Shown here: piece after piece, positions 1,792 to 54,075 of the stretch
Layout of the letters: each line of letters begins with the position of its first letter
How positions within the stretch are numbered: the first letter of the stretch is position 1
NCBI GenBank assembly: GCA_963824385.1
Contig: CAWGPD010000003.1
Span: forward strand, 128,001 to 192,000
Direction of reading: 5' to 3'
Length of the DNA stretch: 64,000 bases
Origin: an uncultured Nitrososphaerota archaeon
GTDB lineage: Archaea; Thermoproteota; Nitrososphaeria; Nitrososphaerales; Nitrosopumilaceae
The notes under the pieces: generated by a model
What the model was told of the DNA's origin: nothing
Database searches by the model: none
Seen by the model: the letters and a program-made list of their open reading frames with translations, nothing else
Program-made: the position numbers and the translations under genes

Positions 1792-2127
1792 TTGAAAATG
1801 AATAATACTAAAAAACAGCTATATGTATTATACATGATATTCTTAGCAGGAACAAATAGGACTGTAGTAGTGACATGTATTGAAGTGGCATTGATGAAGA
1901 GAGGGAATGCCAATTATAATTTAGTCATAGCAAAACTTCGGTCATTTTACAATTGTGATATTGAAGATTGTATTAACAATCTAGAATATTTGCGAACAGT
2001 ATTAAAAGAAGTGTATGAGCAAGACTATACTTCTGTTTTAGAGGATATTACTTGGGAATTGGAGACATTGGATGTATTTGAGATAAACGATTTCAAATCT
2101 GAGTTTTGTAAAATCATGGCAAGTTAA
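1792..2127 (+). CDS. thaumarchaeal 'DCYEHPEYL' family protein (NitrOD5-like output domain), paralog 1; start probably ATG 1834
   Basis: CIEVALMKRGNANYNLV..L...Y.C...DC...EYL..VLKEVY shared with 11572 and 36308. Confidence 0.7.
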   Translation: MKMNNTKKQLYVLYMIFLAGTNRTVVVTCIEVALMKRGNANYNLVIAKLRSFYNCDIEDCINNLEYLRTVLKEVYEQDYTSVLEDITWELETLDVFEINDFKSEFCKIMAS

Positions 2128-10216: not shown

Positions 10217-10458
10217 ATGGAACTAATATTTTGAACCTATAAGGTTTAGTTTTCATTTTTAAACTTTTAATGAGTAGGTCAAATAGAATTTATTCTCCAA
10301 CAAATCATGTCATCATAATTCAAGTTATGGCAAAAAATTTACCCACTGGTGTGTAAATGAAACAGGAAAAGGAGTTTGTAAGTCTTACAGGATATAACAG
10401 CTTTATGAAAACTCTGAAAATAGAATAAAGTATAAATTTATTGAAACAAAATCAATGC

Positions 10459-11038
10459 ATGGTAAAACCAAAAATTCTTGCATTTGCAGGAAGTACCCGG
10501 GTTGATTCATTTAATAAAAAACTAGTCAAAATTGCAGCTGCTGGTGCAGTCAAAGGCGGTGCAGATGTTACTGTGATTGATCTTCGAGACTTTGCCATGC
10601 CACTTTATGATGGTGATTTGGAACAACAAGAAGGACTTCCTTCTAATGCACGCAAACTAAAGGACCTGATGTTGTCACACCAAGGATTCTTAATTTCATC
10701 ACCAGAGTATAACAGACTCAATATCTGGTGTTCTAAAAAATACAATTGATTGGACATCTAGGCAATCCCAAGGAGAGGAATCTTTGGCATGTTTCAAGGG
10801 CAAAGTCGCAGGAATAATGAGTGCCTCTCCTGGAGGGCTAGGAGGTCTTCGTGGATTGGTTCACGTACGTGCAATTCTTGAAAATATCAGTGTTCTTGTA
10901 ATTCCAGAACAGACTGCAATAAGTAAAGCACACGAAGTCTTCAATACTGACGGTACTCTAAAGGACAAAAAACAAGAGGACCAAGTAAAAAAGATTGGTG
11001 CTAATGTTGCCAAGTTATTGCTAAAATTAACTGCTTGA
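10459..11038 (+). CDS. NADPH-dependent FMN reductase (frameshift at ~10716)
   Basis: AGSTRVDSFN, SPEYN|SISGVLKNTIDW, SASPGGLGG. Confidence 0.9.
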
Positions 11039-11214
11039 GATATTTTAAATTAAAAGCAATTTAGATATAAAAATACAGGTAAGAAATAAAAATTTCCAAG
11101 GCGTTTTGTAGCAAGTCTTACAGGATTCAAATTTTATGATGGGGAAAAGTTCGGTATTGGCATTCAAGGCAATAACAAATGGCTAACCTTAATACAAAAT
11201 GCTAGTAGAGGATC

Positions 11215-11370
11215 GTAACGAAAAATCATATCTGTCCTCGTTGCAGGAAAGAATCTAAATGTCTTAATCCTGAATGTGATGATTATACGTTAAGGTATGA
11301 ATGGTGTCCTAATTGTAGGATCAAGCTTACTAGATACTTGACAGGATGGAATGTAATATCCATAATTTGA
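11215..11370 (+). pseudogene. zinc-ribbon microprotein lacking canonical start
   Basis: VTKNHICPRCRKE...RYEWCPNCRIKLTRY; homolog of 1630..1751. Confidence 0.5.
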
Positions 11371-11391
11371 AACTGACTAGATAAAAAAAAT

Positions 11392-11473
11392 TGCAGACTC
11401 GTTCAATTCGGCTCATGCTCTAAGGTTTTACCCTTAGAACACGAAACCGTTTCGTGTTAGTATAGAGTCTGCA
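11392..11473 (-). ncRNA. candidate novel structured small RNA, copy 1
   Basis: closing stem TGCAGACTC/GAGTCTGCA, internal hairpins, T8 tract at 3' end, homolog at 36113..36189. Confidence 0.6.
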
Positions 11474-11571
11474 TAATACATTACGTAATTTGGATTCAAA
11501 AGGTTCTGTTTGTTTAGTTTGAAATAATGTAAGTAGAGAAATATTATAAGAACGTAAGAAAATAGACTGTA

Positions 11572-11856
11572 ATGAGTACTAACTTAAATCAAAACGAGAT
11601 CGCTTTGATCTCATGTATTGAAGTAGTTTTAATGAGAAAAGGTAATGTCAATTATAATCTAGTACTAGCTAGACTAAATGCTCTTTATGGGTGCAAGATG
11701 ATGGATTGCTATGAACACCCCGAATATTTGAAAACTGTCCTAAAGGAGGTGTATGAAGAAAATTATAATTCAATTATAATTGAAATCAAAATGGAATTGG
11801 GTAATTTAGACGCGGAAGAAATAAGTGATTTTATCAATATCATGTTAAAACCATAA
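11572..11856 (+). CDS. 'DCYEHPEYL' family (NitrOD5-like) protein, paralog 2
   Basis: CIEVVLMRKGNVNYNLV...DCYEHPEYLKTVLKEVY. Confidence 0.8.
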   Translation: MSTNLNQNEIALISCIEVVLMRKGNVNYNLVLARLNALYGCKMMDCYEHPEYLKTVLKEVYEENYNSIIIEIKMELGNLDAEEISDFINIMLKP

Positions 11857-11967
11857 CATTATACAATAAAAAATTAAGGAAAGGAGTTGTAACGAGTCTT
11901 ATATGGATTATCTTCATAGTGACAAAGATTGATAATTACCTTGAAGATTAAATTGATATAAAATTAA

Positions 11968-36025: not shown

Positions 36026-36112
36026 GATAAAATCAAGTTTTACAAATCTGATATCTTGCAATACTCATCATACTTCCTTTTGAGTTAGATCAAATTTGGA
36101 TTCAAAAGACTA

Positions 36113-36189
36113 GCATACTCGATCGGTTATGTCCTAAGGAGTTTTTCCTTAGAACACGAACCGTTTTCGTGTGCAGTATTAGAGTCTGC
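36113..36189 (-). ncRNA. candidate novel structured small RNA, copy 2
   Basis: homologous to 11392..11473 with structure-preserving changes. Confidence 0.6.
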
Positions 36190-36307
36190 ACAAGTAATTG
36201 TACTACACAAATACAAAAGACCATGTCTGTTTATAATAAAATCAATGGAATTTATTCAGAATTTCATTATAGCAAGTCTTATGAGCTAATACGTCAATGG
36301 GCTTTGG

Positions 36308-36595
36308 ATGGTCTCTATTGATGAAGATAACAAGACTGCGTTTATAGTTTGTATCGAGGTGGTCTTGATGAAAAGAGGAGATGCCCACTATAATCTGGTA
36401 CTAGCTAAACTCAGGGCTCGCTATGACTGTGGGATTCACGAATGTGTAGATCGTCCCGAATACTTGAAGGCTGTAATGAAAGATGTATACAAAGACAAGT
36501 ACAATGATGTTTTAGATGCATTAAGTCTTGAAAGTGAAAAGCTGGAAGATATAGATGAATTCAAGGATGAATTTTTCAAATTTATGAAGAACTAA
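36308..36595 (+). CDS. 'DCYEHPEYL' family (NitrOD5-like) protein, paralog 3
   Basis: CIEVVLMKRGDAHYNLV...ECVDRPEYLK. Confidence 0.8.
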   Translation: MVSIDEDNKTAFIVCIEVVLMKRGDAHYNLVLAKLRARYDCGIHECVDRPEYLKAVMKDVYKDKYNDVLDALSLESEKLEDIDEFKDEFFKFMKN

Positions 36596-53917: not shown

Positions 53918-54075
53918 TGGTGGGGCCGACCGGAATTGAACCGGCGACACACGGGTCACTACAGCTCCAAACTGTACATCATCCTAACGTCAGTGAAGCT
54001 TGTGAAACCACTGGAGCCCTTAGCGGTGATCAATGTGATCTAAACTGTCGCCATACCAGGCTAGGCTACGACCCC
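53918..54075 (-). tRNA. trnW: tRNA-Trp(CCA) with introns at 28/29 (54020..54046) and 37/38 (53957..54010); CCA encoded
   Basis: acceptor GGGGTCG/CGGCCCC, T-arm GCCGG-TTCAATT-CCGGT, spliced anticodon arm ACGGG-CTCCAGA-CCCGT, BHB motifs. Confidence 0.92.

Follow-up and report, generated by a model that had tools for sequence, protein, structure and literature searches.

A candidate family of small structured RNA genes in the archaeal genus Nitrosotalea

Archaeal single-hairpin H/ACA guide small RNAs (sRNAs) are about 65–80 nucleotides (nt) long and consist of a lower stem formed by the RNA ends, an internal open region and a long upper stem, encoded in a transcription unit of their own. Y RNAs and vault RNAs combine paired ends with an internal loop, a 3′ U-tract and promoters that lie only upstream, and they occur as several paralogs. 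Trans-encoded archaeal sRNAs, such as the Rfam family archaeal sRNA162, are independent intergenic small genes with a U-tract terminator. Here we describe an element that resembles each of these systems in part. It occurs twice in a window of 64,000 nt, the whole stretch of DNA analyzed here, from contig CAWGPD010000003.1 of an uncultured Nitrososphaerota archaeon (family Nitrosopumilaceae), and both copies lie head-to-head with a gene for a small protein of the DCYEHPEYL family. The two ends of the element pair as an 8-bp stem, P1, inside which lie a long hairpin, P2, and a short joiner that is single-stranded. A first-pass annotation of the window had proposed an independently transcribed, structured sRNA gene on the minus strand. 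A promoter-like block at 38 of 39 loci, an oligo-T run at 38 of 39, covariation of the paired positions and the lack of any Rfam or tRNA match support this proposal. Judging from these sequence features, we consider it probable that the element represents a real, independent and previously undescribed family of small structured RNA genes.

The element shares the length, the end-formed lower stem, the internal open region, the long upper stem and the separate transcription unit with H/ACA guides. However, no ACA (ANA) box follows the lower stem, where most members have UA or AA and then T5+, and the 3′ side of the open region comprises only 1–8 nt. The interruptions of the upper stem vary as well: the stem is continuous in the copy-3 group and otherwise contains a 3-nt bulge or a 2x2 A/A loop flanked by Watson–Crick pairs, with no conserved G.A pairs. 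No conserved kink-turn (K-turn) or K-loop was seen there when the alignments were read by eye, and Rfam returned no match, so the assignment to H/ACA sRNAs was rejected. C/D box sRNAs carry a C box (RUGAUGA) and a D box (CUGA) near their ends; reading of the 39 members revealed no C box, and CUGA appeared only within the 3′ strand of P1 in some short forms, and this class was likewise dismissed. Like Y and vault RNAs, the element has paired ends and a 3′ U-tract, belongs to a small set of paralogs and would be driven from a promoter located entirely upstream, but the likeness is architectural only. Neither the Y_RNA nor the vault models of Rfam matched, and no Ro/TROVE protein (PF05731) was detected at expectation values (E) up to 1 in the source genome, which is 86% complete, whereas the controls matched in two genomes; a Y RNA was thus ruled out. 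Archaea also have one RNA polymerase, which is a further difference from the setting of Y and vault RNAs. With trans-encoded archaeal sRNAs, the element has in common the independent intergenic gene and the U-tract terminator, but it scores 12.7 bits against the sRNA162 model, which is at chance level compared with the gathering score of 78, and it is nearly all helical with little open seed. A riboswitch or leader was rejected because the downstream open reading frame (ORF; called mechanically at 60 amino acids (aa) or more) lies on the same strand at 15, is convergent at 21 and is absent at three of the 39 loci; without a consistent same-strand downstream gene, the element is not cis-regulatory.

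The first-pass annotation had not recognized the element as a tRNA, a C/D or H/ACA RNA or a known ribozyme, and our searches agree with it. At the gathering threshold, Rfam finds only a tRNA elsewhere in the window, and permissive Rfam 15 scans of both copies and two short forms gave nothing credible, the best match being snR82 on the plus strand (23 bits vs 60). ARAGORN called no tRNA or transfer-messenger RNA gene in the whole window. As a separate observation, the Rfam tRNA model matches positions 53921–54075 on the minus strand with 38.3 bits; the match spans 155 nt, a length that points to a long intron, and ARAGORN called no tRNA there.

Structure, strand and flanking signals

The proposed pairing was evaluated with 39 family members that were examined closely and range from 64 to 81 nt in length. 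In a model-fitted alignment of these sequences, 91.2% of the cells are paired, compared with 25–44% when the partner is slid. Changes on both sides occur in 12 of 25 pairs, and none of 500 shuffles reached the covariation score, which supports the pairing. One pair in P1 is found as U-A in 21 members, C-G in 15 and U-G in three, and one pair in P2 as C-G in 14 and G-C in 12. This alignment leans to the model; 18 diverse members were therefore realigned with plain MAFFT and analyzed with RNAalifold, which gave identical P1 and P2 helices with compensatory changes in six of 20 pairs. Folding of single sequences yields P1 together with P2 in 34 of the 39 members. The conserved letters are the 5′ segment GCAGAYUCUMUAC, its partner GARUCUGY and the CGG/CCG at the base of P2, and the P2 core UGUUCU/AGAACA is invariant. 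The variable parts are the joiner, the P2 tip and the linker on the 3′ side.

The minus strand of the window is presumably the functional one because many of the pairs are G-U, fitting this strand only, and because covariance-model scores drop from 40–96 bits on the RNA strand to 22–36 bits on the reverse strand. Copy 1 folds on the minus strand into an 8-bp P1 around a 17-bp P2 with –37.7 kcal/mol (z = –8.0), and copy 2 reaches –28.8 kcal/mol (z = –6.8); in both cases none of 200 shuffles equaled the energy. The plus-strand folds are weaker (–31.6 and –26.4 kcal/mol for copies 1 and 2, respectively). As previously noted, the long hairpin is real in both copies, the differences between them run through G-U pairs possible only on the minus strand, and CTTTTG(A/T)AT was seen 21 nt upstream of both. 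Other parts of the first-pass description hold for copy 1 only. The terminal stem is intact in copy 1, but the P1 of copy 2 has a G.A mismatch (GCAGACUC vs GAGUAUGC) and its minimum-energy fold lacks P1. Similarly, the T-tract just downstream is present as T8 in copy 1, but copy 2 has only CTTTTG there and is the sole member (1/39) without a T5+ run. Directly 3′ of copy 2, at the site of the oligo-T in other members, stands ATTTGGATTCAAAAG, possibly a leftover from a tandem copy. The coordinates of the features are collected in Table 1.

Table 1. Coordinates of the RNA copies, their predicted signals and the neighboring protein genes (window positions unless a contig is named; R1 is the covariance model built from the copies of the source genome).
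Feature	Position	Strand	Remarks
sRNA copy 1	11393..11472	minus	80 nt; R1 81 bits, E 1.1e-15
Parts of copy 1			P1 GCAGACUC/GAGUCUGC; joiner J1/2 UAUACUAACACGAAA; P2 17-bp hairpin with GUAAAA loop
Oligo-T (T8) of copy 1, predicted archaeal terminator	11383..11390	minus	2 nt past P1
Predicted promoter of copy 1	11494..11525	minus	putative assignment
TATA-like CCTTTTGAAT of copy 1	11494-11503	minus	spans -31 to -22
Conserved upstream block ATTTCAAACTAAACAAACA of copy 1	11507-11525	minus	
sRNA copy 2	36113..36189	minus	77 nt; P2 intact; R1 76.6 bits
Predicted promoter of copy 2	36211..36239	minus	TCTTTTGTAT + TTATTATAAACAGACA; fits family consensus less well
15-nt ATTTGGATTCAAAAG 3′ of copy 2	36094..36108		same letters as copy 1 promoter core 11488-11502
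sRNA copy 3	C3:240326-240401		adjoins radA
sRNA copy 4	C5:9608-9688		
DCYEHPEYL-family protein, 94 aa	11572..11856	plus	divergent from copy 1, 99 nt from RNA 5′ end
Paralog, 95 aa	36308..36595	plus	divergent from copy 2, 118 nt from RNA 5′ end
Third window paralog	1852..2121	plus	no sRNA upstream

The flanking signals are as regular as the helices. On the RNA strand, the upstream region reads ATTTCAAAAT[AG]AAC[AG]AACA and then YCTTTT[GC]WAT at -31 to -22, followed by an ATAAT-like stretch near -10 and a T immediately before the start G. Across the family loci, the block preceding CTTTT[GC] reads AAT[AG]AAC[AG]AACA. Of the 39 loci, 38 have a CTTTT[GC] that starts 29–31 nt ahead of the first letter of GCAGA; 38 likewise have a T5+ run that begins 0–7 nt past P1, at exactly 2 nt in 30 loci. 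Ahead of 872 long ORFs in the source genome, TATA-like hexamers peak at -30 to -26, and the CTTTT[GC] box thus fits the archaeal TATA position if transcription starts at GCAGA. In line with archaeal transcription in general, we infer that the upstream block and box would serve as a promoter and the oligo-T as a terminator. In the source genome, the upstream block is found at the four RNA copies only. A pattern scan of 111 genomes with one mismatch allowed located it at RNA loci only within the genus, its count equaling the RNA count in three further genomes (G070, G014 and G004) and being zero in three RNA-less genomes of the genus. Elsewhere, the scan returned two one-mismatch sites in other genera, both of which were rejected as coding-looking sequence without an RNA-like fold. 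A hairpin TTCAAAA/TTTTGAA inside the upstream block was also discarded, as reading showed that the CTTTTC forms do not preserve it. In soil metatranscriptomes, two contig sets (6% of words) cover 11220–11354 and 11816–11900 and not the RNA, which is uninformative either way.

Separately from these signals, we noticed a conserved palindrome, GT[AG]TGTTTARTTCAAACATAC, about 75–95 nt upstream of the RNA start and beyond the promoter block, in differing contexts. It is carried by nine loci that form a subfamily of the short forms (L035, L037, L049, L051, L053, L060, L061, L062 and L063) and is a candidate site for a regulator that travels with the RNA gene.

Distribution within Nitrosotalea

The element had been noted as occurring twice. 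Both sequences and places are exact, but BLAST and the covariance model R1 identified four copies in the 1.68-Mb genome, with model E-values from 1e-14 to 4e-19 that exclude a chance origin. Of 36 further genomes of the genus, R1 matches 14, and it gave no match in 24 genomes that represent 19 other families of the order. A second model, R2, which was built from 22 sequences, finds 1–5 copies of the RNA in each of 19 genomes of the genus out of 40 (the source genome counted); under stricter filters, it matched none of 141 genomes of 26 other genera in the family and three of nine in the genus. Among 185,579 species genomes, a pattern scan picked out 108 loci, of which R2 confirmed 57. Of the 108 loci, 80 are named, 42 of them confirmed; these 42 are all labeled as Nitrosotalea or as unclassified metagenome-assembled genomes (MAGs) of Nitrosopumilaceae, Thaumarchaeota or Nitrososphaerota. 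They include four loci on the chromosome of Ca. Nitrosotalea devanaterra and a single locus in Ca. N. bavarica. R2 confirmed neither any of the 34 chance matches with bacterial names nor any of 10 viral-contig pattern matches. The RNA family is so far found in one genus only, Nitrosotalea, the ammonia-oxidising archaea of acid soils. Among the 39 loci, two (L036 and L045, rows of alignments A4 and A6) come from genome G012, which is flagged unpublished; the genus-wide genome counts of RNA and protein include G012, and the protein count also G011, G019, G028 and G034.

The same RNA is kept in the same chromosomal context across species, which points to vertical inheritance. Orthologous positions were recognized in a radA/radical-SAM context in five genomes and in a kinase/DnaJ-TPR context (PAS kinase, Zn-ribbon, DnaJ-TPR) in ten; apart from the loci beside a DCYEHPEYL gene, the remainder fall into a group marked by two secreted-looking proteins and a dozen or so singletons. 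In four RNA-less genomes (one of them G011, locus L197), the region upstream of radA has other neighbors and contains no RNA-like element. The radA gene beside copy 3 (C3:240563-241605, L021) itself appears split into several ORFs (62 aa, 99–195 aa), as it does at L029, and is intact with 332 aa in L030–L032; an intein, a frameshift or faulty assembly could account for the split.

Two loci deserve mention on their own account. One thaumarchaeal MAG contig (L094) carries a tandem pair of RNAs with equal scores, 231 nt apart, at 1536–1619 and 1767–1850. Another locus (L043, contig C104 of genome G003) is a mosaic of a copy-1-like RNA, a copy-4-like downstream flank and a protein closest to the copy-2 paralog (61%), which suggests exchange between paralogous loci.

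Possible roles of the RNA

If the gene is real, its product would be a free-standing transcript of 65–90 nt that starts at the G of GCAGA, ends in the U-tract and acts in trans. The conserved upstream block might mean that all copies answer to one dedicated regulator or to a variant initiation factor. Given a real gene, we tentatively regard a protein-binding RNA, that is, a scaffold, a decoy or a part of a ribonucleoprotein (RNP), as the likeliest role, ahead of a base-pairing regulator, a switch or a dedicated partner of the neighboring protein. We favor it because both helices are under selection and the conserved letters lie in the helices or at the corner between P1 and the joiner, with no long open seed.

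Several points weigh against the RNA gene as we interpret it. The RNA is missing in about half of the genomes of the genus and would therefore be dispensable, and the model is narrow and may miss more distant relatives. P1 is weakened or re-paired in five of the 39 members, copy 2 included, which may be decaying. A G or C stands in the middle of the TATA-like box, and were the AAAATAAAC block the actual TATA box, transcription could begin some 20 nt farther upstream. Expression, ends and strand are all read from sequence signals. As to protein binding in particular, the search of the 86% complete genome gave no Ro/TROVE partner and the alignments no conserved K-turn, which leaves this reading without a partner.

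A base-pairing regulatory sRNA is a possible, less probable role, in which the 5′ segment GCAGAYUCUMUAC together with the variable joiner and loop would pair with mRNAs in trans, as bacterial and methanogen sRNAs do. The paralogs indeed differ chiefly in the joiner and the P2 tip, as in guide-like families, and the joiner of copy 3 could form a duplex of –15.6 kcal/mol with the codons of the 36308 mRNA (36308–36370, the conserved AFIVCIE region), ranking second among 2076 gene starts. However, this strong duplex is isolated among eight tests and does not involve the RNA's own neighbor. The conserved 5′ segment is locked in P1, which covaries (C-G in 15 and U-A in 21 members at the pair mentioned above), and the short forms offer only 5–7 open nucleotides.

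The protein-binding role could also be cast in a more specific form, which we consider rather unlikely: a lineage-restricted RNP or signaling RNA of acidophilic ammonia-oxidising archaea, with a dedicated extended promoter read by a specialized TFB/TBP paralog or regulator, in which the paired ends and the invariant helix core would dock an as yet unnamed protein, possibly within the network of the stand-alone 'output-domain' proteins whose genes often adjoin the RNA. If true, this would be an archaeal counterpart of the eukaryotic small RNAs with upstream promoters. The RPC34-like factor in Thaumarchaeota (PMC2770514) is a lead only for the idea of a specialized promoter.

The first-pass annotation had instead seen the RNA and the DCYEHPEYL protein as a candidate module, duplicating as a unit, with the RNA possibly bound by the protein or regulating it, which we find unlikely. 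The placement on which this view was built is correct: the two protein genes start at 11572 and 36308, divergent from the RNA at the distances given in Table 1, and the proteins are 48% identical. Across the family, the protein gene is the divergent upstream neighbor at seven of 39 loci (L023, L043, L024, L036, L033, L054 and L055), or six of 37 without G012 (L036). The gaps between RNA and protein gene are 97–118 nt in five of the seven, and the outer flanks differ in all of them. With 1–11 gene copies per genome of about 1.6 Mb, we estimate a chance adjacency of well under 1% per locus; the seven adjacencies are thus far above chance, and the RNA and the protein gene tend to travel together. 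However, the other 32 RNA loci have other neighbors, and three of the five paralogs in the source genome have no RNA upstream. The protein is encoded in 40 of 40 genomes of the genus (1–11 copies each), whereas the RNA is present in 19 of 40. The subtypes of RNA and protein are also unmatched at the mosaic locus L043, where a copy-1-like RNA lies beside a copy-2-like protein. The proteins are acidic, with a median net charge of –6 and an isoelectric point (pI) of 4.8, and the joiner shows no consistent complementarity to the start of the neighbor's mRNA (rank fractions 0.05–0.7 for seven pairs). The head-to-head placement, which is above chance, therefore stands and the obligatory module does not: joint duplication or shared upstream control most likely accounts for the arrangement, not an obligatory complex.

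The nature of the neighboring protein bears on the same question. NitrOD5 and the archaeal 'Death-domain-like' output domains resemble it as stand-alone, all-helical domains of about 95 aa that are multicopy in thaumarchaea (NitrOD5 paper, PMC5847659). The seven stand-alone NitrOD5 copies reported there for Ca. Nitrosotalea devanaterra fit the copy number of the neighboring protein family. In contrast, PF11537 (NitrOD5) matched neither window protein at E up to 10 nor any frame of the genome above the cut-off; the model was silent also in all 55 genomes of the family and all 14 control genomes, so that the test is low-powered. A weak lead is an Atlas neighbor cluster (score 0.86) in which 12% of the members have PF11537, and the NitrOD5 label is unconfirmed. 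No Pfam family and no sequence relative in the Protein Data Bank (PDB) were found for the protein. It is modeled confidently as six helices with a predicted local distance difference test (pLDDT) score of 88, and the best solved fold, a weak match, is PH0832 (2p9x), with a template modeling (TM) score of 0.60 and E of 0.12.

In the same part of the window, an open frame at 11212–11370 on the plus strand, convergent with copy 1, contains two CxxC pairs (…CPRCRKESKCLNPECDDYTLRYEWCPNCRIKL…) and has no ATG, GTG or TTG start. Similar sequence flanks the RNA in L046 and L033, and a similar frame lies upstream of the third paralog. Further upstream, the adjacent plus-strand ORFs at 10441–10749 and 10784–11038 look like two halves of one gene, with a flavin-reductase-like N-terminus as judged by eye.

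A two-state RNA, acting as a sensor or a co-transcriptional folding switch, appears improbable. Such a switch would turn on the 5′ arm of P2, for which two partners would compete in the long forms: its regular 3′ arm and the joiner (AACACGAAA). The alternative hairpin is 9 bp long in copy 1 and formable in 92.5% of the cells among 13 long forms, against 30–59% when slid. However, no compensatory change supports it, and P2 is far more stable in every fold. At the single informative site, a G-to-A change in the copy-3 group is absorbed by P2 (G-U to A-U) and breaks the alternative pair (C.A). The segment is missing altogether from the short forms, which make up 26 of the 39 members. The competing ACACGAA/TTCGTGT hairpin, which had been put forward as a shared feature of the element, is thus not a property of the RNA family; a switch in the long forms is possible.

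Finally, a DNA element that is no RNA gene at all, either a repeat resembling a miniature inverted-repeat transposable element (MITE) or a palindrome such as a factor binding site, is very improbable: several copies per genome in differing contexts, ends that are inverted repeats (P1), the mosaic flanks of L043, the tandem copies 231 nt apart at L094 and the invariant TGTTCT...AGAACA palindrome would suit it, but the G-U pairs and the score asymmetry suit one strand only, promoter and terminator signals lie on that same strand, the copy number is low (1–5 per genome), the chromosomal places are conserved across species and none of the 10 viral-contig pattern matches contained the RNA. Target-site duplications, which the first-pass annotation had named as a mark of a MITE, were not found either. 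TT[TC]CAA occurs downstream in 15 of 39 loci against a background of 14%, and only within orthologous groups; TTTCAAA was rejected as a target-site duplication for the same reason, namely that the flank is shared within orthologous groups only.

Significance

To our knowledge, almost nothing is known about the regulatory RNAs of ammonia-oxidising archaea. We searched the literature and found no description of this RNA or of Nitrosotalea small RNAs; the Nitrosotalea genome paper lists only seven automatically annotated small RNA genes (PMC4836417). In the family described here, the gene boundaries are clear, the predicted dedicated promoter is very well conserved and the covariation is good. 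Because four loci lie on the chromosome of the cultured Ca. Nitrosotalea devanaterra, it is directly testable. The RNA family could serve as a marker for a sub-lineage of the genus and could give a clean example of a specialized archaeal promoter, and it might be a first entry point to the RNA-based regulation of soil nitrifiers.

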